Source of the DNA: a virus
Reading direction: 5' to 3' (one strand)
DNA: 37,911 nt
UHGV virus genome: UHGV-0078433
Shown here: in pieces, positions 777 to 32,062 of the stretch
Layout: every line of letters begins with the position of its first letter
How positions within the stretch are numbered: the stretch's first letter is position 1
Translations under genes and position numbers: made by a program
The notes under the pieces: generated by a model
What the model was told of the DNA's origin: nothing
What the model saw: only the letters and a program-made list of their open reading frames with translations
The model's database searches: none

Positions 777-2606
777 TTACACCTGACCAAGGTCCTCTAC
801 GCTTTCCTGATCATTCAGCAAGGTAATGGCAACAGCAATTGAGGAGAGGATAGTTTTGATTTCTATGGTGTTCATCCCTTCCTTTTCCCGGACGTACTCG
901 CATAATTTATCGACGTCAAATATCTCTCTGATGTTTGTATATTCGGCGGCTCTTTCAAGCAAGTGCACGATTTCTTCTCGCTGACCTTCGACAAATTGAG
1001 CCTGCCATGCTTGCACAGACCTTGGCGTGAATTTAACCCCGCTATCATAAGGAGCATCTGCGATATCAAGGCCAAATCTACCCTGCAATGATTTATCCCA
1101 TGTCGCATTCAAAAATGGCAGAGAAACTAATTCAGGAGCCAGCTTTGCCATGACGCTGTAGTGGAACAATTCTTTGTTCCTGGCCTCCGGACTGAGCTTG
1201 AATACCAAACGCGCAACTTTAGGAGAGAGAAGTGGCATCAGTTTAATTCTGCCTGTGACGTTCTGAGCAAGAGGGCCGTTCCAATTGGAAAGACGGTTTT
1301 CTACGAAGAACTTCTCAGGTAAAACATCAAACCTTACAGATTTAATATTCTCCTCAAGCCAGCCGTAGAACCAACCTATTTGAGCGTTTTTATACAAACT
1401 GGAGAGAATGTTTAATGGATCCATCTTCTGATGGTAGTTTATGAACTTAGAAAGAATTGCATCTTTATTGTCCATAAAGGACAGGTTTTTAAACTGCTTG
1501 GCGTGTCCGCCGGGTCCGCGATATAGCTCGCCGCCAAAGCCAGTCATATCGGACGTTATATTTTTGATGGTGCGTTCAGCTGTTGCTCCATCCCATGGGC
1601 AAATATAACTTTCCATTCTGTAGGAATGCCAGTTAAGTTTTTCCCATGAATTAGCAAAATCCTGAGCTTTAACTTGTGGAGCCTTAACGTTAGCGACGTG
1701 CTTAACGCCGATTTTGCTGGCTATGTTCTGAGCGCAACTTATCTCCGGGCTTCCTTCCGGTCCGTTCGTAAATGTGGTAATCCTGTCTTTGAATCCTGCA
1801 CCCAATGCCAGTGCAAGGACAAGACGAGAGTCCTTACCACCGGTCAGTGATAAGCGGAGTTCACCGGGAATGTTTTCACTCGCAGCCTTAAAGTTTTTCA
1901 CCAATTCATCTACGATCAAATCCCAGTCATCACCTGAAAGGTCATTTAGATATTCAGCATCCTCACTTGAAGGCCAGATCTGATTCTTAAATTTATTGAT
2001 ATTTACTGTTGTTGAACCGATTGGTGACTTTAAATAGCTACCTGCCGTGATTGTATTTACACCTTCAAATGGTGTTTCATTTCCAAATATATTGGCATGC
2101 CCAATCAACCAGCTCAATGAGGAAAGGTTATATTTACCATTGCCTCGTAATTCATGTAATGCAGATGCTCTGTTACTTACGCAGGTCACACCATCAATTA
2201 TTGTGTAATAAATAGGACAGGTGCCTGAGAAATCGCCGAAAGCAAGGAGGCCATTCTTGGAGGTTATTGAAACGAAGTTGTAAGACCCGGAAATATTGTC
2301 AAACATGTATTCCGCATCGTTTTTTGTGGAGGCATCAAGTGCGGCGTCAGACACGTCATAGCTATCCCCCATCCTTAAAACAGGGCCATTTATCAGGCAT
2401 ACGCCGCTTTGCTTAGATGTTATTCTTTTTGATATTTCGCCTTCCGCATTGCCACATGCTGTATATGCCCAAGCTCCGCTACCAGATATTTTATTAGCCA
2501 CCTCTACTGGCTTAAATGTTAAGTTCCTTTTTAGGGCCTGCTGCGCTGTCTCGTATAATTTCTTAACAGACTCGCTTTTTCCATTTAAAACAATAAAGTT
2601 TATCAT
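777..2606 (-). CDS. Asparagine synthetase (AsnB)-family PP-loop protein with GATase-like N-domain lacking the N-terminal Cys nucleophile
   Basis: 609-aa ORF; PP-loop LSLTGGKDS; AsnB-like motifs GDFSGTCPIYYT and AGSYL; residue 2 is Ile not Cys; visibly AT-rich versus neighbours. Confidence 0.8.
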   Translation of the reverse strand: MINFIVLNGKSESVKKLYETAQQALKRNLTFKPVEVANKISGSGAWAYTACGNAEGEISKRITSKQSGVCLINGPVLRMGDSYDVSDAALDASTKNDAEYMFDNISGSYNFVSITSKNGLLAFGDFSGTCPIYYTIIDGVTCVSNRASALHELRGNGKYNLSSLSWLIGHANIFGNETPFEGVNTITAGSYLKSPIGSTTVNINKFKNQIWPSSEDAEYLNDLSGDDWDLIVDELVKNFKAASENIPGELRLSLTGGKDSRLVLALALGAGFKDRITTFTNGPEGSPEISCAQNIASKIGVKHVANVKAPQVKAQDFANSWEKLNWHSYRMESYICPWDGATAERTIKNITSDMTGFGGELYRGPGGHAKQFKNLSFMDNKDAILSKFINYHQKMDPLNILSSLYKNAQIGWFYGWLEENIKSVRFDVLPEKFFVENRLSNWNGPLAQNVTGRIKLMPLLSPKVARLVFKLSPEARNKELFHYSVMAKLAPELVSLPFLNATWDKSLQGRFGLDIADAPYDSGVKFTPRSVQAWQAQFVEGQREEIVHLLERAAEYTNIREIFDVDKLCEYVREKEGMNTIEIKTILSSIAVAITLLNDQESVEDLGQV

Positions 2607-2871: not shown

Positions 2872-5358
2872 CTACTTTGCTTCGAGATTTCCCACTCGTT
2901 CAGCCAGAGCCTCAAACTGCGATAGCAGCCTTTGATGATTACGACGATGAAGGGCAGCCTCCATCACTAATGCCTCCTCATATCGAATGCCATAGCGTGA
3001 TCCCGCTTCAACCGCCGGAACTACTACATCGCCAGTCTCTTCATCAAGAACTTCTGGTGAGCTTTCCCACTTGTCATAACAGAAGAAAGCAAACTGGTGA
3101 GGATCAAGTCCATGACGGATAAACGCTTCTTGCGCACGCTGGGCAATAATGCCGACATGCCAACGGGCTCCATCATCTCCCTTTGCCTCTATACGGTCAA
3201 TGAACTGGAACTGCACGAAATCTACTTCCGCCCAGGCATCCAGAATATCATCTGCGTACGGCGCTTCCATTAACCGTGAATCTGTCGTTTGGACGGGTTC
3301 GAGAGAACCACGAGCCAGCATCACTGGACGCGATTTTTGCCTTTCATCGGAGGTGACAGTATACGCAGCCTGAGTGAATCCGCCCGCAAATGGACTTGAA
3401 CTGGTACCAACAGTTCTGGTGTTAGCGGCGCTGGGCTGGATATTGCCGTTTACGCTCATGTTGGTGTTGATATTTACGACAGCAGAAGCAAAGCGTGCAA
3501 CTTCAGTACCGGCCGACGCTTCAGTTGATGAGACGTAGAGGCCGACAGCATTTTTACTAAGGACTGCGGTTCGGGCAAATCCACTAGAATCGCGGATCTC
3601 TCCGAGCCCAACTTGATAATCGTCAGACTGCGGGCCGGTAACGTTAGTGATGCAATGGAATACGCCACCCATTTGGTTAAACGGATCTGTCACGGATTCA
3701 AGATGAAGGCCATCTATAATGATCTTCCCGGTATTGCTACCCCCTGACTCTATGCCTACAGGGCAATTCCTTAACGTCACGTTGGTTAGTTTTTGATATT
3801 TCCTGTTCAGGCGTAAGGCAACATTGGTGTCTCTACACACAATATTGGTTACAGAACACGCCTCTGCATCACCAAACTGCCGATCACTGGCTCCGGAGGC
3901 TGTTGTTGTCTGGTATCCGGTTATTGCGTTAGCGCACTGAATATTTGATCCGTTGCAATATCGCTCCTCAATCCACACTGAAGCCCCAATTCTTCCGCCA
4001 TCATATCCGAGACATGATATATTGCTGTAATTGACGAATGGGGATTTAATATGGAGCCCGATGATGTCTGAATCAGTGGATTTAAATCGGTTCTGAATGA
4101 CTGTGATGTTTGTAACATCACTCCATACACCGCCAGTTCCACGACTGACGGTATCGCCAATGATCCCCTGCTTGATACGGACGCCAGCGCCGGGCGCTCC
4201 GACGTTACCAAAGTCTGACACATAAACGTTCGATACCTTCGGCGCCAATGACATTACGTCAACGCCTGCCCAAGGGTGGGCTGGCTCGTCAAGTTGCCCG
4301 AAGTTGAAAACGAAGATGTTATTTAATTGAAACGCGCGACTGACAGACCCATTATCCTTAATGTCGATACCATCTGCGCCGGTGTTTTCAGACCAGAATC
4401 CGTCGATGCTGCAGCCCTTATACCCGCCATTCTGAAGACCCAAGGCATAATGAGAGCAGTTCTTTACCTTGAGGCCGCGAATTGTAAGCCCCTCGATTCC
4501 TGCTCCGACAATGCCTTCAGTTTGCCGGGCGTAAGGAGTACCATTCCATAAGTAATTCCCGTCGATACAAATATCTTGAAGGCCGACGCCCCTTACTTTT
4601 GTGGTGCCGTTTTCGAGCGGTGGCTTTGACCACTGTATTACCCCATATGCAGCATCTGTGTTGTAAGCTCTTATAGTAGTAGAGTTCCATCCCTGCCCAC
4701 GGAGAATAATGTTGTCAAATGGGATGCGCAAAGCAGCAACGTTTAACGTTGCGTTGGCAGAGCTAAATTCAGTCGGATCCTGATGCACCATGTATAAGGG
4801 CCGCGGGAATACAATCGTGCCCCCGCCGGCTGCACTGAGTTCCTGCGCCTTCTGCATTATCAGTCTTGCGTTCTGCAGGGCGACAACCTGGCTAACAACC
4901 CCAGGGATTACGCCAAATGAATCAGCGGTTATTTCAATGCCACCAATTAATGACGAGCCGGTACTGGAGCTTAATCTCTGGACAAAAGAAAACGGATCAA
5001 CCAGGGAGCAATTTTCAAAATAGTATTGCTGAGCCCCATAAGCATCGTAAACAGCCATGCTGTAATCACTTTCAGTGACTATGGTTACAACCTGGCCATT
5101 ATATACTGGGTAACCTGAGGAATTAATTTTAACTGGCTGGCTGATCTGCACCAGGGAGCCATTTTCATTCCTGAAATAAACCGCTACCCTATTGGCTGGA
5201 TTTGTTGGATCCGTGTCAGGAACACCAACATAAATATTACCGTTTGCGATAGCTTTAAAGCTTCTCGGCGTAATAAATGGGATGTACGGCATTGTTACTT
5301 GCTGGTTGGCAATGATATCTGGCATTTGCTGTTCTCCAGGTGCAGAAAAGCCGCACAA
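2872..5358 (-). CDS. Tailspike: P22 gp9-like head-binding N-domain, beta-helix depolymerase-like centre, C-terminal self-cleaving chaperone (S74-type) domain
   Basis: N-terminal ~110 aa resemble P22 tailspike N-terminus (recall); repetitive beta-helix-like middle; SDERQK motif followed by ~150-aa chaperone-like tail. Confidence 0.85.
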   Translation of the reverse strand: MCGFSAPGEQQMPDIIANQQVTMPYIPFITPRSFKAIANGNIYVGVPDTDPTNPANRVAVYFRNENGSLVQISQPVKINSSGYPVYNGQVVTIVTESDYSMAVYDAYGAQQYYFENCSLVDPFSFVQRLSSSTGSSLIGGIEITADSFGVIPGVVSQVVALQNARLIMQKAQELSAAGGGTIVFPRPLYMVHQDPTEFSSANATLNVAALRIPFDNIILRGQGWNSTTIRAYNTDAAYGVIQWSKPPLENGTTKVRGVGLQDICIDGNYLWNGTPYARQTEGIVGAGIEGLTIRGLKVKNCSHYALGLQNGGYKGCSIDGFWSENTGADGIDIKDNGSVSRAFQLNNIFVFNFGQLDEPAHPWAGVDVMSLAPKVSNVYVSDFGNVGAPGAGVRIKQGIIGDTVSRGTGGVWSDVTNITVIQNRFKSTDSDIIGLHIKSPFVNYSNISCLGYDGGRIGASVWIEERYCNGSNIQCANAITGYQTTTASGASDRQFGDAEACSVTNIVCRDTNVALRLNRKYQKLTNVTLRNCPVGIESGGSNTGKIIIDGLHLESVTDPFNQMGGVFHCITNVTGPQSDDYQVGLGEIRDSSGFARTAVLSKNAVGLYVSSTEASAGTEVARFASAVVNINTNMSVNGNIQPSAANTRTVGTSSSPFAGGFTQAAYTVTSDERQKSRPVMLARGSLEPVQTTDSRLMEAPYADDILDAWAEVDFVQFQFIDRIEAKGDDGARWHVGIIAQRAQEAFIRHGLDPHQFAFFCYDKWESSPEVLDEETGDVVVPAVEAGSRYGIRYEEALVMEAALHRRNHQRLLSQFEALAERVGNLEAK

Positions 5359-5437
5359 GCTAAAACTTGCGCAGCGTGGCTACGGTTAGTTTTTTGTGAT
5401 AAAACAACTTTTTCGGAAGTTATTTTGTTCGCTTTTC

Positions 5438-5460
5438 GACCTACACTTTTTGTGTAGGTC
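5438..5460. promoter_or_regulatory. Perfect palindrome GACCTACAC-TTTTT-GTGTAGGTC, candidate operator for the adjacent Mnt-like repressor
   Basis: 9-bp arms, 5-nt spacer, between tailspike start and mnt start; no U-tract on either strand so not an intrinsic terminator. Confidence 0.35.
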
Positions 5461-5583
5461 TCTCCTTCAAGCTCATTGCCTAAGCGTGGCTACGGTTGGT
5501 ATTTGTTGCATACCGAGACGGTACCATTGTTGATTTGTACAGTAGGTTTTACGATGCCATTCCACCCATTTGGTGAGGCATTG

Positions 5584-5847
5584 ATGATGTACAGCAAATA
5601 CGATGAGGCGCAGTTCCACTTGAGGCTTACGCACGAGTTGCACGCTAAGATTAAGCAGCGTGCGAAGATGAATAACAGGTCGCTGAACTCAGAGATAATT
5701 GCAGCGATTGAAGAATCATTGGATAAACAAAGCTCTGCATCAGTTTACATTGACGATGCAGAGCGTATGGCAGAACAACAATCTGATATGGTTAAGAAAA
5801 TTGTCTTTGATACGCTCAAGGAGCTATATAAAAAAGACTGCAACTAA
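5584..5847 (+). CDS. mnt: Mnt-like ribbon-helix-helix repressor (Arc/MetJ family)
   Basis: FHLRLTHELHAKIKQRAKMNNRSLNSEII and C-terminal DAERMAEQQSDMVKKIVFDTLKELYKK resemble P22 Mnt (recall); start set at internal MMYSKYDE rather than track start 5476. Confidence 0.75.
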   Translation: MMYSKYDEAQFHLRLTHELHAKIKQRAKMNNRSLNSEIIAAIEESLDKQSSASVYIDDAERMAEQQSDMVKKIVFDTLKELYKKDCN

Positions 5848-5936
5848 CCATCCATTACGGAGGATTTATGCAAAGAGATATGCTGAATATTGCATTCTAC
5901 ATATTTGGTTTTTGCACTTTCCTGGTGTTTGCAAAG

Positions 5937-7934
5937 CTATTCTGACAACGCATCAGACTTAGCGCCTTGGGTCAGCGCGTTAATTGCCTTTTGTGCCTGC
6001 TGCAAGGCTTTCTCAAACGCTGTTGATCCGCGTTGGGTGTTTGCCATTCGGAGCATTGCATTTCTGAATGGCTCGCTCTCATAGGCGCGAGCAAGAAGTC
6101 CGTAGCTTACTGCTGCGCCAGTTGTCGCCGGGTTCATTGCCGTCCCATACCCAATAATGAACGGGATAGTTTGCTGCCCTGTGGGTGTTGTTACTGCCGC
6201 TTTTGCAGCCTGCTGCGTGGATTGCAGGTAGTTTTTTAATCCTTTCAGATAAGCAGCGTCCTGCCCCTTAAATGTGATGCCAGTCTGGTTTTGCAGGATA
6301 TTAAGCTGCCGAAGGAACTGGTCAGGGGATCCACCTGATTTCTCCATCGCCTTTCCAATGATGCCATTGCGCATTTGCGCCCTGCCAACACGGCCAACTG
6401 AGTTGTACAGCGTCTTAATTTCCGATTTGTTCTTGCTGAATAGCATGTTGTTGACAACTTCCGGAGTAAGATCTCCTTTAATGAGAACATTCTTCAGCCG
6501 GGTATTCTTTAGTTTCGCCGCTTCGTCAGCGTAGACGGCATTGGCCTGCTGATATTTACGGAGAGTATCGTTGCCAAGATTCTGACCAATGGCACCATTG
6601 ATATCGTCGGTCATCGCCTTGTAAACGCGCTGAATGGCAGCATCGGAACGGTTTGGTAACACTGGTCGCTCACCCTTCACGTCCATTCTGAACTGGCTGC
6701 GCAGATCGCTTAATTGCTTCAAGTCCAGATTTACCGGACCATCAGGGCCAGCATTGCGAACAAGCTCATCACGATATGACTGAAGTTTTGAAATGGTCTC
6801 GTTATCAGCGACCTTACCAAGCTTCTGCAGATTAGATATCTCGGTATCAATCTGCTGAATTGCTCGCGCAGGATGAATGTTTACTCCAGCCATAGCATTC
6901 TGAACCTGCTCCAGTCGATTACCGGCGGCACGACGAATTCCTGATGTTTTCGCTTTAAGGCTGTCAATAACAACTGCTGGATCATACTCACCGAATTTAT
7001 CAGCAAATCTCTGCACCAACTGGCTTCTCGCTTCCTGTTGCGTTGCTCTCATTCCGCTTGTGCCAGCCAGGGGGATATTTTCCGCTGTCGTCTGCGCCAT
7101 TTTCCCGACGCGGGAAGTAGGCTGTAACAGGTCTGTGGTGTGCAGAGGAACTCCTTCACGCTCTGCAAATCTGATAGCCTGCTGCGCTTCTGGCGCAATA
7201 GCACCACGAACGCCACGATAAGCAGCACCTAATCCACGTCCGGCAGCGTTAATAGCACCGCCAGCCAGCACACCAACGCCTAAATCGGTGGCGAGGGCTT
7301 CCGCATCATCTTTCGCACTATTTGCAGCAAGTGATCCAACTGCGTTTTCAGCGAGAAGACGAGTTGCCCCCTGAGCAATTCGACCAGCAAGTGTTGGTGC
7401 CTGTGTTGCCGCTCTCTCAATGCCAGCAGGAGTGAGGTAAGGCAATGCCTCAGCAAATACCCTTCCCTCTGTAGTTTGTGGAGTCAGCGCGCCTTGCTGA
7501 AGGCCAAAGTCCTGCTCTAATCCCTGCGTTGTTACTCGTGGCGCTGGTTGATATGTACCATCACCAATACCGAGTTTACCGCCAGCCCATGCCGCCGCGC
7601 TTGTTACAGCATCGGCAACTGATGCAGGTATGTTTGCCACGTTCACGCCAGCCTGTACCAGTCCGCGACCAGTCTCTTTTACTGCTTCGCCAAGATCAGA
7701 CATAAATCCACTTTGCTGTGGTTGTTGCTGTGCTACTGGCTGTTGTGTCTCCACTGGCTGCACTGATGGCAATGGATAGGCAGCATAGAAAGCTTGCTTA
7801 GCCTGCTCTGCATTTTCTCCGGCTTGCGGGGCCACGACTTCATTGAAGTATTGCTCCTGAGCCTGCGCTTTTTGTTCTGGTGCTAACGCCTGATACTGTG
7901 GAGAGGCGATAACATCTTTCCATGCTTTAGCCAT
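5937..7934 (-). CDS. Ejection/injection protein, P22 gp16-like
   Basis: 665-aa Ala/Gln-rich protein at the gp16 position in P22 gene order 7-20-16. Confidence 0.75.
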   Translation of the reverse strand: MAKAWKDVIASPQYQALAPEQKAQAQEQYFNEVVAPQAGENAEQAKQAFYAAYPLPSVQPVETQQPVAQQQPQQSGFMSDLGEAVKETGRGLVQAGVNVANIPASVADAVTSAAAWAGGKLGIGDGTYQPAPRVTTQGLEQDFGLQQGALTPQTTEGRVFAEALPYLTPAGIERAATQAPTLAGRIAQGATRLLAENAVGSLAANSAKDDAEALATDLGVGVLAGGAINAAGRGLGAAYRGVRGAIAPEAQQAIRFAEREGVPLHTTDLLQPTSRVGKMAQTTAENIPLAGTSGMRATQQEARSQLVQRFADKFGEYDPAVVIDSLKAKTSGIRRAAGNRLEQVQNAMAGVNIHPARAIQQIDTEISNLQKLGKVADNETISKLQSYRDELVRNAGPDGPVNLDLKQLSDLRSQFRMDVKGERPVLPNRSDAAIQRVYKAMTDDINGAIGQNLGNDTLRKYQQANAVYADEAAKLKNTRLKNVLIKGDLTPEVVNNMLFSKNKSEIKTLYNSVGRVGRAQMRNGIIGKAMEKSGGSPDQFLRQLNILQNQTGITFKGQDAAYLKGLKNYLQSTQQAAKAAVTTPTGQQTIPFIIGYGTAMNPATTGAAVSYGLLARAYESEPFRNAMLRMANTQRGSTAFEKALQQAQKAINALTQGAKSDALSE

Positions 7935-13537: not shown

Positions 13538-14791
13538 TTACTGCCCGGCAATAACGATGCCCGTATATTCAGGAACAAGTACAGAGCAACCGTACAGAGT
13601 GGTGAAACGAGCAGTGGTTACACCTTTGATGTGGTCGAAGGCGTAAGACATGATCAGCGTAGCGCCCTGCTCGGTGGTTGCTGTCATTACCTGTGGACCC
13701 TGACCAGTCGGGAACGCCAGTTTGCCGTACATCAGCTCAACAGAACCATCAGCCCAGAACAGGTTAGCAGGTGCTGCGTTCTTGTTGAGAATGGTGATTG
13801 CTGCTGATGCTGCCGGCTTGGCATCGACGTTTGCATATGGACGACTCGCAACATCGGCATTTTCAACAGGGAGAATCTTTGGAGAGATTGTTACGGTAGT
13901 TCCGCTAACAGCCAGAACACGGAATACCTGCGGTTGCCCGGTGGTATCTTTTGTGATCTGGTGTACGGAATTCACACCGGCAATGGTGAACGCATCACCA
14001 ACCTGCAAGCCAGATGCAGATACCGTAATAGTCCCCTGTCGGTTATCAACTGGCATACCATTTGAATCTTTCGCTTCAACCTTGTGTTCAGGTTGGCCTG
14101 ATACTGTCAAGGATTCAGCGCTTCCTTTCGGTAATCGACCAGAAATATCGGTCTTGTAGCTATCAAAGGAAGCAACCGGAGGGATCTGCGCTTTTTCGTA
14201 TGCTGTCAGGGTTGCGCCCTGAGCATAGGCACGGTGACCAAGCTCGCCTGCAAGATCTTTGTAGTTGAAGGGGTTCCAGAAAGAGCGACGGTTGATGCCC
14301 TGAGGTACACCAATCGCCGTCATGGTGGCATCAATGCCTGCCGCACAGTTCCACAAATCACGGCCCTGTGTACCTGTGGTTGAGTCAGCCATCGTGATCA
14401 CGTTAGTAGCACGCTGCGTGACCATGGAAATCAGGTCAGAGTCAATCTGTGCAGCAAGGCGCATACCTGCGGCGCGACCAGCTTCAGTTTTATGTTCCGG
14501 GTCACGCATTTCACGCGCATCCAGAGTGTACAGAATGTTTTTCGGCTCCTTGAACACAGAAGGAACAAGGCGCTGAACCAGTGCTGTTGGCGTTTTGCTG
14601 CTGAGGTCGAGGCCTTCCTCAATATTCATGTGGTAATGCTGCGGACGATACAGAACATCACCTGCTCGCTGCATTGCTGTATCACCGGGACGGAATTTTT
14701 TAGCGTTACGGGAAACTACGCAGGCGGCCTCAAAGCCTTCAACGTAGTTTTCGAACATGATTTCAAGGTCTTTTGCTAATTGGTTAGCCAT
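13538..14791 (-). CDS. Major capsid (coat) protein, P22 gp5-like
   Basis: 417 aa directly after scaffold gene; synteny. Confidence 0.85.
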   Translation of the reverse strand: MANQLAKDLEIMFENYVEGFEAACVVSRNAKKFRPGDTAMQRAGDVLYRPQHYHMNIEEGLDLSSKTPTALVQRLVPSVFKEPKNILYTLDAREMRDPEHKTEAGRAAGMRLAAQIDSDLISMVTQRATNVITMADSTTGTQGRDLWNCAAGIDATMTAIGVPQGINRRSFWNPFNYKDLAGELGHRAYAQGATLTAYEKAQIPPVASFDSYKTDISGRLPKGSAESLTVSGQPEHKVEAKDSNGMPVDNRQGTITVSASGLQVGDAFTIAGVNSVHQITKDTTGQPQVFRVLAVSGTTVTISPKILPVENADVASRPYANVDAKPAASAAITILNKNAAPANLFWADGSVELMYGKLAFPTGQGPQVMTATTEQGATLIMSYAFDHIKGVTTARFTTLYGCSVLVPEYTGIVIAGQ

Positions 14792-20531: not shown

Positions 20532-21062
20532 TCACACCATTCCGGGCAAATACATTTGCACTTCATTTGCCGCTCTCTCACGTGCAACATGAAGCAATCT
20601 TTTTCGCCCACCAACGCCCCACTTAGCCATTTGGCTTGCGCACTGGCTTATCGCTTTGGTTTCAGTATTGATGATGTGATCGATTCTATTCAGACGGGAC
20701 ATTGCGCCAACGCCGAGACGGACAACCGTTTTGAAAACTTCATAAACTTCGATTTCAAATTCCGGCTTAATCCATGCTGCATATCTGATTGCCAGAAGTT
20801 CAACACCCCACACACCTGGTTCTGCACCACCTTTGATTATTTTAAGTGGTTGAATTTGTTCCAAAGTGCTTTTTTGCACTTTGGCCTCCAGTGCTTTTAT
20901 GAAGCGTTTTATCTGCGCGCTACGCAAAAACTGGCTTGGGCGCTGTTGCTCTGTAGCCTCTCCATTTGCAACTGCTGCTGCATGGAGATCGTTTAAGTTG
21001 TAGCGTCCATCCTCATCAACACGAACGGACACACCATTGACAATAACTGTTGGGTACTTCAT
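20532..21062 (-). CDS. KilA-N domain protein
   Basis: N-terminal VIVNGVSVRVDEDGRYNLNDLH pattern typical of KilA-N. Confidence 0.7.
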   Translation of the reverse strand: MKYPTVIVNGVSVRVDEDGRYNLNDLHAAAVANGEATEQQRPSQFLRSAQIKRFIKALEAKVQKSTLEQIQPLKIIKGGAEPGVWGVELLAIRYAAWIKPEFEIEVYEVFKTVVRLGVGAMSRLNRIDHIINTETKAISQCASQMAKWGVGGRKRLLHVARERAANEVQMYLPGMV

Positions 21063-30450: not shown

Positions 30451-31101
30451 ATGAATACACAACTGATGGGTGAGCGTATTCGCGCTCGCAGAAAAGAACT
30501 CAAGATTAGGCAGGCTGCCCTTGGCAAGATGGTTGGCGTGTCTAATGTTGCTATTTCCCAATGGGAGCGATCTGAAACTGAGCCCAATGGCGAAAACCTA
30601 TTGGCCTTAGCCAAGGCTTTGCAGTGCTCCCCTGATTACCTGTTGAAAGGAGAGGATAGTCTTTCAAACATTGCCTATCACAGCAGGCATGATCCAAGAG
30701 GTTCGTATCCTCTAATTAGTTGGGTAAGCGCAGGATGTTGGATGGAAGCTGTAGAGCCATATCATAGGCGTGCAATAGATAACTGGTACGACACAACGGT
30801 AGATTGTTCTGAAGACTCTTTTTGGCTCGACGTTAAAGGCGATTCAATGACTGCCCCGGCAGGACTGAGTATTCCTGAGGGGATGATTATTCTCGTCGAC
30901 CCAGAAGTCGAACCACGTAATGGAAAGCTGGTAGTCGCCAAACTTGAAGGAGAAAACGAGGCGACATTCAAAAAGTTAGTTATTGATGCCGGTAGAAAAT
31001 TCCTGAAACCACTCAATCCACAATACCCAATGATTGAAATCAATGGGAACTGTAAAATCATTGGCGTTGTCGTTGATGCCAAGCTAGCAAACCTTCCTTA
31101 A
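30451..31101 (+). CDS. c2: C2 repressor (LexA-like S24 family, P22-type)
   Basis: Near-identical to P22 C2 as recalled; intact GDSM and KK cleavage motifs. Confidence 0.95.
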   Translation: MNTQLMGERIRARRKELKIRQAALGKMVGVSNVAISQWERSETEPNGENLLALAKALQCSPDYLLKGEDSLSNIAYHSRHDPRGSYPLISWVSAGCWMEAVEPYHRRAIDNWYDTTVDCSEDSFWLDVKGDSMTAPAGLSIPEGMIILVDPEVEPRNGKLVVAKLEGENEATFKKLVIDAGRKFLKPLNPQYPMIEINGNCKIIGVVVDAKLANLP

Positions 31102-31415: not shown

Positions 31416-31721
31416 ATGGTAACCATTGTCTGGAAAGAATCCAAAGGTACGGCAAAAAGCCGCTACAAAGCTCGCAGAGCAGAACTTATTGCCGAGCGAC
31501 GCAGTAATGAAGCACTGGCGCGAAAAATTGCGCTAAAGCTCTCTGGTTGCGTCAGAGCAGACAAAGCAGCATCACTAGGAAGCCTTTGCTGCAAGAAGAA
31601 AGAAGAAGTCGTTCGAAAAAATAGAAGTATTTATTACAAAGATTCAAACCCGTTAGGAAACAAAATACATGCAGTCCAAAAAATAAAATTGTACAGTAAA
31701 CTACCGTACGGTGCTTATTGA
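31416..31721 (+). CDS. N-type antiterminator (P22 gene 24-like) with arginine-rich motif
   Basis: ARM GTAKSRYKARRAELIAERR resembles the P22 N peptide GNAKTRRHERRRKLAIER (recall); start at MVTIVW with GGAG RBS rather than track start 31386. Confidence 0.7.
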   Translation: MVTIVWKESKGTAKSRYKARRAELIAERRSNEALARKIALKLSGCVRADKAASLGSLCCKKKEEVVRKNRSIYYKDSNPLGNKIHAVQKIKLYSKLPYGAY

Positions 31722-32062
31722 GTATGCTTATGGTGAAAAAGACTATTTATGTTAATCCTGACCGCGGACAAAACAGAAAAGTATCTGATAGAGGTCTTAC
31801 ATCTCGAGACAGGAGGAGAATAGCGAGATGGGAAAAAAGGATAGCATATGCATTAAAAAACGGTGTAACACCTGGATTTAATGCTATAGATGACGGTCCG
31901 GAATATAAGATTAATGAAGAACCAATGGACAAAGTTGACAAAGCATTAGCAACACCATTTCCTCGCGATGTAGAAAAAATTGAAGATGAAAAATATGAGG
32001 ATGTAATGCACAGAGTTGTTAATCACGCTCACCAACGAAATCCAAATAAAAAATGGTCATAG
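31718..32062 (+). CDS. Hypothetical AT-rich moron protein downstream of N
   Basis: ORF track; followed by its own terminator. Confidence 0.5.
   Translation: MSMLMVKKTIYVNPDRGQNRKVSDRGLTSRDRRRIARWEKRIAYALKNGVTPGFNAIDDGPEYKINEEPMDKVDKALATPFPRDVEKIEDEKYEDVMHRVVNHAHQRNPNKKWS

Follow-up and report, generated by a model that had tools for sequence, protein, structure and literature searches.

The window analysed here is the whole 37,911-nucleotide stretch of virus genome UHGV-0078433. It corresponds to a complete P22-like prophage of the Lederbergvirus type, whose late operon lies on the minus strand. The late and lysis genes include the portal, coat, Q and lysis genes and the gp7-, gp20- and gp16-like ejection genes; the early genes include those for a C2-type repressor, CII, Erf-like and SSB recombination functions and an integrase. 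A gene coding for a Mnt-type repressor is found between the gp16-like and tailspike genes, in a region with the following features.

2872..5325, minus strand: tailspike gene, with start codon ATG 5325 and Shine-Dalgarno sequence GGAG at 5337-5334; divergent from mnt
5350..5375, minus strand: terminator-like hairpin found by a terminator scan, with an 11-bp stem followed by UUUUCUG, just upstream of the tailspike ribosome-binding site
5367..5496, no strand assigned: P22-like spacer block, ~95% identical to the P22 ant-gene 9 spacer (megablast, blastn)
5373-5394 and 5483-5504: direct repeats AGCGTGGCTACGGTT, 110 bp apart, flanking the 5438-5460 palindrome and the spacer hairpins; also present in P22
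5433..5486, minus strand: relic of 18 codons, RLGNELEGETYTKSVGRK, with homology to an internal segment of a JEP4 protein annotated as KilA
5510..5524, no strand assigned: operator-like 15-bp palindrome ATACCGAGACGGTAC at the position of P22 Omnt; consensus RTACC-N5-GGTAC
5527..5555, plus strand: candidate Pmnt-equivalent promoter TTGTTG-17-TACGAT, at the position of the annotated P22 Pmnt
5587..5847, plus strand: mnt homologue, 86 aa from the conserved ATG, with an RHH domain and the Mnt tetramerisation helix
5868..5945, plus strand: unannotated ORF for a hydrophobic 25-aa peptide, MQRDMLNIAFYIFGFCTFLVFAKLF, with a strong Shine-Dalgarno sequence, GGAGG, 4 nt upstream of its ATG
5937..7934, minus strand: gp16-like DNA ejection gene (ORF), the final gene of the late operon before the moron; convergent with mnt

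The C-terminus of the gp16-like protein is 97% identical to relatives annotated as gp16 or DNA transfer protein, and in a Klebsiella aerogenes relative the gene in the corresponding place is annotated with the Phage_P22_gp16 family (PF26808). The tailspike protein harbours a P22-type Head_binding domain (Pfam E 3.9e-39) and a Peptidase_S74 domain. An earlier note on this DNA had described a gp16-like gene followed only by a convergent mnt and then by the tailspike gene. The gene order holds, but mnt is not alone, as the conserved 25-aa ORF at 5868-5945 shares the interval.

As first read, the mnt ORF spans 5584-5847 on the plus strand and codes for 87 aa, with an extra in-frame ATG at 5584. 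Because the codon at that position is AGG in most relatives, the true start is probably ATG 5587, which gives a protein of 86 aa. By profile and structure matches, the product is a true Mnt homologue. An Arc-like RHH domain was recognized at residues 8-50 (Pfam Arc, PF03869, E 7.8e-13), and the coiled-coil tetramerisation segment at residues 58-83 (Repressor_Mnt, PF11423, E 3.4e-14). Matches to solved structures were obtained with the N-terminal part of P22 Mnt (1MNT, E 7.6e-18, residues 7-80) and with the Mnt tetramerisation domain (1QEY, E 1.9e-8). The protein shares 48.7% identity with P22 Mnt. The recognition beta-strand, in the N-terminal RHH domain, reads QFHLRL. P22 Arc also has an RHH domain, and its QFNLR is similar to the QFHLR of the window protein; in contrast, Arc has no tetramerisation helix, gives a weak match (E 0.014) and has its gene on the opposite strand, upstream of ant. 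Mnt homologues are widely mislabelled as 'partition protein ATPase' in RefSeq and PHROG (Sf101 gp14, ST64T gp64, phrog_795). We treated this label as an annotation error propagated in RefSeq phage records; it yielded no lead.

We determined the selective regime of mnt from 55 unique coding sequences. The overall pN/pS ratio is 0.155 (pS 0.093, pN 0.014) and that of the RHH domain alone is 0.11; 82 of 83 mnt copies are intact. By these measures, mnt is under purifying selection. In more distant homologues and across genera the RHH domain is nearly invariant, whereas the C-terminal helices differ and recombine.

We aligned the sequences upstream of mnt from the window, JEP4, IME10, Sf101, Gally, ST64T, epsilon34 and P22. 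Here the columns of the ATACCGAGACGGTAC palindrome coincide with those of P22 Omnt, AGGTCCACCGTGGACCT, and of the AGACCAC-N-GTGGTCT of Gally and ST64T, the invariant columns being CC-N5-GG and the ATTG that follows. Its arms are intact in 87 of 91 loci, and the spacer between them is variable, with six versions (GAGAC, GAAAC, GAAAT, TAAAT, AAAAT and GTTAA). The arms are also kept with the same RHH domain in Salmonella VSe13, Klebsiella aerogenes, Rahnella and one metagenome. Conserved arms around a varying centre are the pattern expected of a protein-binding palindrome. From allele to allele, the operator half-site changes in step with the recognition beta-strand: HFNFRM is paired with GGTCC (P22, epsilon34), QFNLRL with AGACC (Gally, ST64T) and QFHLRL with RTACC (window). 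Operators of the Mnt family are symmetric sites of ~17 bp just upstream of the gene's own -35 element, and a putative site of this description is found at 5510-5524, its centre ~45 bp upstream of the predicted Pmnt start. The window harbours a single exact copy of this operator. A search for a second Mnt target in the prophage returned matches with 1-2 mismatches at chance level, and none was retained. One such match, with 1 mismatch, lies at 21044-21056 in the first codons of a KilA-N ORF; matches of this kind occur at chance rate.

The Pmnt-equivalent sequence is identical in the Salmonella, Klebsiella, Rahnella and metagenome relatives. Candidate promoters were scored with an approximate sigma-70 matrix; the background was the best score in random 275-nt segments of this sequence (median 7.9 bits). 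The Pmnt-equivalent scored 9.1 bits, compared with 14.3 for P22 Pmnt. It is the best plus-strand candidate in the interval and lies below the threshold of the promoter scan.

The locus was compared with immI of P22. The protein has the same fold (RHH plus tetramerisation helix), and its gene has the same position between gene 16 and the tailspike gene and the same orientation; the putative operator and promoter also appear at the same spacing as Omnt and Pmnt. In contrast, the protein is 49% identical to P22 Mnt, with QFHLRL instead of HFNFRM as its recognition strand and RTACC instead of GGTCC as its half-site, and the locus is devoid of arc, ant, sar, sieA, orf59a and a strong Pant. To establish these absences, the entire 37.9-kb window was searched by tblastn with P22 Ant, Arc, SieA and orf59a, CUS-3 Ant, and the Rha, KilA and Arc-like proteins of JEP4. 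No arc, ant, sieA, orf59a, Rha or KilA gene was found in it, and the tailspike gene follows directly; the best hit of P22 Arc had an E value of only 9.2. The earlier statement that arc, ant and sieA are missing was therefore confirmed, the 18-aa relic at 5433-5486 being the only significant hit. The 5000-6300 interval, in which sar was looked for, gave no Rfam match, hence no known RNA family. Thus, the region has neither an ant gene divergently transcribed from Pant, nor arc and sar, nor a strong Pant on the operator. It corresponds to the reduced, mnt-only form of the 'ant moron', with mnt between the gene 16 homologue and the tailspike gene and without ant, arc or sieA. A Pfam pass was also made over 20 further ORFs, mostly in the early region. 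It revealed one KilA-N-domain ORF (Pfam E 7.3e-18) at 20532-21062 on the minus strand, flanked by the lysis genes and the terminase and labelled 'transcriptional regulator' in PHROG. This ORF bears no relation to P22 Ant, and no exact copy of the operator occurs near it.

The mnt-only layout has been described before and is common. Villafane et al. (2008) named the region the 'ant moron' and reported that those of ST64T, ST104 and Para1 contain only mnt and one unknown gene (PMC2629481). Zaworski et al. (2020) described a mnt-only moron in phage L and considered 'another function or a remnant' (PMC8022706). A search of the literature library for a link between Sf101 and Mnt found nothing. In Sf101 and IME10, Mnt is 94-95% identical to that of the window and the gene order is the same; in Gally, VSe13 and ST64T, mnt is directly divergent from the tailspike gene. 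Among the best 80 IMG/VR loci, 78 hold DNA upstream of mnt, and in all 78 the N-terminus of a tailspike is encoded there, with ant or arc in none. Distant mnt homologues in Klebsiella aerogenes, Rahnella and a metagenome contig also adjoin a tailspike gene with a head-binding domain, without ant. The mnt-tailspike pairing is conserved in prophages of E. coli, Shigella, Salmonella, Klebsiella and Rahnella. Matches to the region were obtained in 397 of 5426 complete E. coli genomes. Besides Sf101, IME10, VSe13 and ST64T/L, the layout of the window is found at about 90 other loci, Klebsiella and Rahnella prophages among them, and is mostly ordinary. An orphan Mnt is therefore no discovery, having been drawn in 2008 and taken up again in 2020; what we add is the evidence of selection, the RTACC-N5-GGTAC operator type and the cross-genus pairing of mnt with the tailspike gene. 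The lone Mnt is also a convenient natural case for the role of a secondary-immunity repressor once its antirepressor is gone.

The mnt-only morons of ST64T, ST104 and phage L (PMC2629481, PMC8022706) and of Sf101, IME10, Gally and VSe13 have the same reduced layout and an intact operator palindrome. Those of ST64T, L and Gally differ from the window in their DNA-binding allele, QFNLRL, and their operator, AGACCAC-N-GTGGTCT. The window also differs from mnt-only morons in its rare junction, which keeps the whole P22-like ant-gene 9 spacer (2 of 83 loci). Measured from the position equivalent to 5584 of the window, the distance from mnt to the tailspike start is 118 nt in 62 loci, 132 nt in 4 and 651-725 nt in 11; only the window and one identical contig have a spacing of 258 nt. 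In the relatives with longer spacers that we inspected (L009, L028, L085 and L093), a gene for an HNH/AP2 homing-endonuclease-like protein of ~165-180 aa is found ~130-670 nt upstream of mnt. The inserted gene separates the Mnt operator region from the tailspike gene and leaves behind a duplicated relic of the tailspike start. This insertion may be linked to exchange of the tailspike module.

The earlier note had proposed Mnt binding to a palindrome within the spacer block. This palindrome, GACCTACAC-TTTTT-GTGTAGGTC at 5438-5460, does exist, with 9-bp arms and a 5-nt loop. However, the P22 ant-gene 9 spacer has the same palindrome (GACCTACAA...TTGTAGGTC), flanked by the direct repeat GCRTGGCTACGGT, and in P22 that spacer lies ~1.2 kb from the annotated Mnt operator. 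We rejected the 5438-5460 palindrome as the Mnt operator because it lies inside the P22-type spacer block and overlaps a remnant of coding sequence annotated as KilA; by position, 5510-5524 is the equivalent of Omnt. The relic (5433-5486), which covers this palindrome, matches JEP4 KilA with 14 of 18 residues identical (tblastn E 1.2e-4) and 88.6% nucleotide identity over 44 nt (blastn; L004 5129-5172 in the JEP4 stretch). This suggests that the P22-type ant-gene 9 spacer is the relic of an older antirepressor-type gene. In JEP4 itself, genes for Arc-like, Rha and KilA proteins lie beyond mnt, on its far side, and the 8 kb examined contain no second operator copy.

The AGCGTGGCTACGGTT repeats mark the junction of the missing arc-ant segment and may serve as a 'boundary sequence' for recombination. 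In the window, the pre-operator sequence TTGGTATTTGTTGCATACCG comes immediately after the second copy of the GGCTACGGT repeat; in P22, the ant terminator and ant come after this repeat. Only one repeat copy, again joined to the pre-operator sequence, is found in JEP4, in ST64T and in the relatives of the 132-nt class. The simplest reading is that arc-ant would have been deleted, or never acquired, at the junction right after the second GGCTACGGT repeat. Other lineages might then have lost the 110-bp unit through recombination between both repeat copies.

Based on selection and on the conservation of both operator and promoter, we argue that the window codes for a working repressor. We estimate at about 60% the probability that Mnt is a functional member of its family, an RHH dimer of dimers acting at its own promoter region, and that it was left in the reduced 'ant moron' of a P22-like prophage. 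Mnt would bind the palindrome at 5510-5524, whose geometry relative to Pmnt (5527-5555) is that of Omnt in P22, and the promoter would be active in lysogens. The prophage would thereby make a self-controlled rightward transcript covering mnt and the 25-aa membrane-peptide ORF, both co-transcribed, and then running antisense to the 3' end of gene 16. Transcription of the tailspike gene would come from the late operon through the region and not from a Mnt-controlled promoter. Three observations count against this reading. Firstly, the Pmnt-equivalent scores just 9.1 bits against a background median of 7.9 and is absent from the promoter-scan results. Secondly, a site centred at ~-45 does not occlude the Pmnt-equivalent. 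In P22, the stimulation of Pmnt by Mnt results mainly from the silencing of Pant, which seems to be absent from the window. Thirdly, phages devoid of mnt (Sf6, BTP1) also have the small ORF.

The second element of the predicted transcript is the 25-aa ORF. It begins twenty nt past the mnt stop codon and overlaps the stop region of the gp16-like gene by 9 nt in convergent orientation. Homologues are found at the same position in Sf6 (L087 1202-1279), Gally, VSe13 and BTP1, the BTP1 copy being diverged and 23 aa long (MERDLLNFVFLIFGLVVGKLLFA; L096 14011-14082, minus strand); the ORF also occurs in IME10, 683R2 and 720R6. The ORF was found in 74 of 96 sequences and is always intact where found, with a pN/pS ratio of 0.21 computed from the few sites of a short ORF. 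Since it is also present in Sf6 and BTP1, which have no mnt, it does not depend on Mnt. It has no match in Pfam, NCBIfam, PHROGs or a 15-billion-protein collection, and it is unannotated in the IME10, Sf6, Gally, VSe13, BTP1 and E. coli RefSeq stretches examined. A terminator scan of positions 5100-6100 found no intrinsic terminator on the plus strand, and the fold after the small ORF gave no significant sign of a structured terminator (z = -1.6). Because no plus-strand terminator was found up to 6100, the Pmnt transcript should carry mnt and the small ORF and then continue antisense into gene 16.

Such a transcript would be the positional counterpart of STnc6030 of phage BTP1. Owen et al. (2020) reported that STnc6030 is highly expressed in lysogens and confers complete, phage-specific immunity, that it is antisense to the tailspike gene's 5' end and to the gp16 homologue's 3' end, and that it is classed as non-coding for want of an ORF >60 aa (PMC7067206). 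Like the transcript predicted for the window, STnc6030 is made from the prophage strand between the tailspike gene and gene 16, antisense to the late operon, and it includes a homologous ORF of the 23-25 aa type overlapping the gene 16 stop. In contrast, BTP1 has no mnt, and the STnc6030 promoter lies inside the tailspike gene. According to the published coordinates, STnc6030 spans L096 13703-14488 and contains the 23-aa ORF at 14011-14082.

A tentative alternative to a repressor confined to its own promoter region is that the Mnt-regulated transcript serves superinfection exclusion, protecting the lysogen against related phages through the peptide acting on gp16, through antisense pairing or both. 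By analogy with BTP1, this would fit with the immunity that STnc6030 gives to lysogens, and with the four escape SNPs, which are all non-synonymous and all in gp16 (PMC7067206). The BTP1 homologue of the small ORF sits inside STnc6030, and by our own arithmetic the ~500-nt species seen in Northern blots would end just past it. In addition, the best candidate that our matrix finds on the BTP1 antisense strand (8.0 bits) is 7 nt upstream of the published STnc6030 5' end, which also gives the matrix some credit. However, the escape SNPs map to L096 13802-13839, in gene 16 and not in the small ORF, and antisense pairing accounts for them just as well. The pN/pS ratio of the ORF rests on few sites, and Sf6 and BTP1 have the ORF without mnt. 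We consider it rather doubtful that the 23-25 aa ORF codes for a real small membrane protein of P22-like phages that is the active product of STnc6030 on gp16, with the window Mnt as regulator of an exclusion gene. Nevertheless, the link between the small ORF and STnc6030 is the only lead here that might be new. If confirmed, a peptide ORF within the BTP1 exclusion region would change the reading of that exclusion system.

The earlier note had also proposed immunity in trans, with the prophage Mnt repressing Pant of incoming ant-carrying P22-like phages and thereby sparing the resident C2-type repressor. In P22, Mnt keeps ant off in lysogens, and Ant of a superinfecting phage can induce the prophage. 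This established biology, the purifying selection on mnt and the presence in the window of a LexA-like C2-type repressor (Peptidase_S24 plus HTH, 30451-31101) speak for the proposal. In contrast, specificity is bound to the allele, and the operator of the window differs from that of P22. We looked for ant-carrying phages with this Mnt allele among phage records (by DNA and by protein), the best 80 IMG/VR loci and the contigs of the distant homologues, and found none; no phage record joins a window-type regulatory region to ant. None of the ~95 loci that share this DNA-binding allele of Mnt has arc or ant beside the operator, which leaves no known phage as a cognate target. Immunity in trans also leaves the conservation of the operator in cis unexplained. 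We thus regard it as unlikely.

It is more improbable still that the tailspike gene is driven by a Pant-derived leftward promoter overlapping the operator and repressed by Mnt, as the earlier note had suggested. The tailspike ATG lies 185 bp downstream of the operator, mnt and the tailspike gene are divergent throughout, and the P22 moron may affect the level of tailspike (PMC2629481). A weak leftward candidate, TCGTAA-17-AACAAT, would start within the operator. However, it scores 5.5 bits with our approximate matrix, against a background median of 7.9 and 16.5 for P22 Pant, its elements are just the reverse complements of the Pmnt hexamers, and a promoter scan of the mnt-tailspike intergenic region found nothing. 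On the late-operon strand, the RNA of 5320-5510 is predicted to fold into three hairpins (z = -3.7), the last of which is the terminator-like hairpin at 5375-5350; a related hairpin is found in the BTP1 spacer. Any leftward transcript from the weak candidate would run into these hairpins before reaching the tailspike gene. The suggestion of a Pant-derived tailspike promoter therefore found no support. Most likely, the tailspike gene is transcribed from the late operon, as in P22.

Finally, a reading of mnt as a remnant without function in a decaying immI region, raised as a possibility for phage L (PMC8022706) and in line with the loss of its partner genes, is highly improbable given its pN/pS ratio of 0.155, the 82 of 83 intact copies, an RHH domain that stays nearly invariant across genera while the C-terminus recombines, and the conserved operator arms. 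For the lone mnt, the data favour function over remnant. That the retained Mnt is a working gene and no debris is thus borne out by selection and by the operator-like palindrome at the Omnt position, and a functional repressor acting at its own promoter region appears as the preferred reading.

Two further ORFs of the prophage deserve mention. Directly downstream of the tailspike gene, a 609-aa ORF (777-2606, minus strand) has a weak Asn_synthase-like match (E 5.5e-4) and also matches a PHROG with no assigned function. This ORF may be a moron for the modification of surface polysaccharide, at the place where P22 has its gtr genes. The ORF at 31718-32062 (plus strand) adjoins an N-like antiterminator ORF and strongly matches the Nun-like transcription termination factor family (phrog_5632, E 9e-71); it may serve an exclusion function against lambdoid phages.
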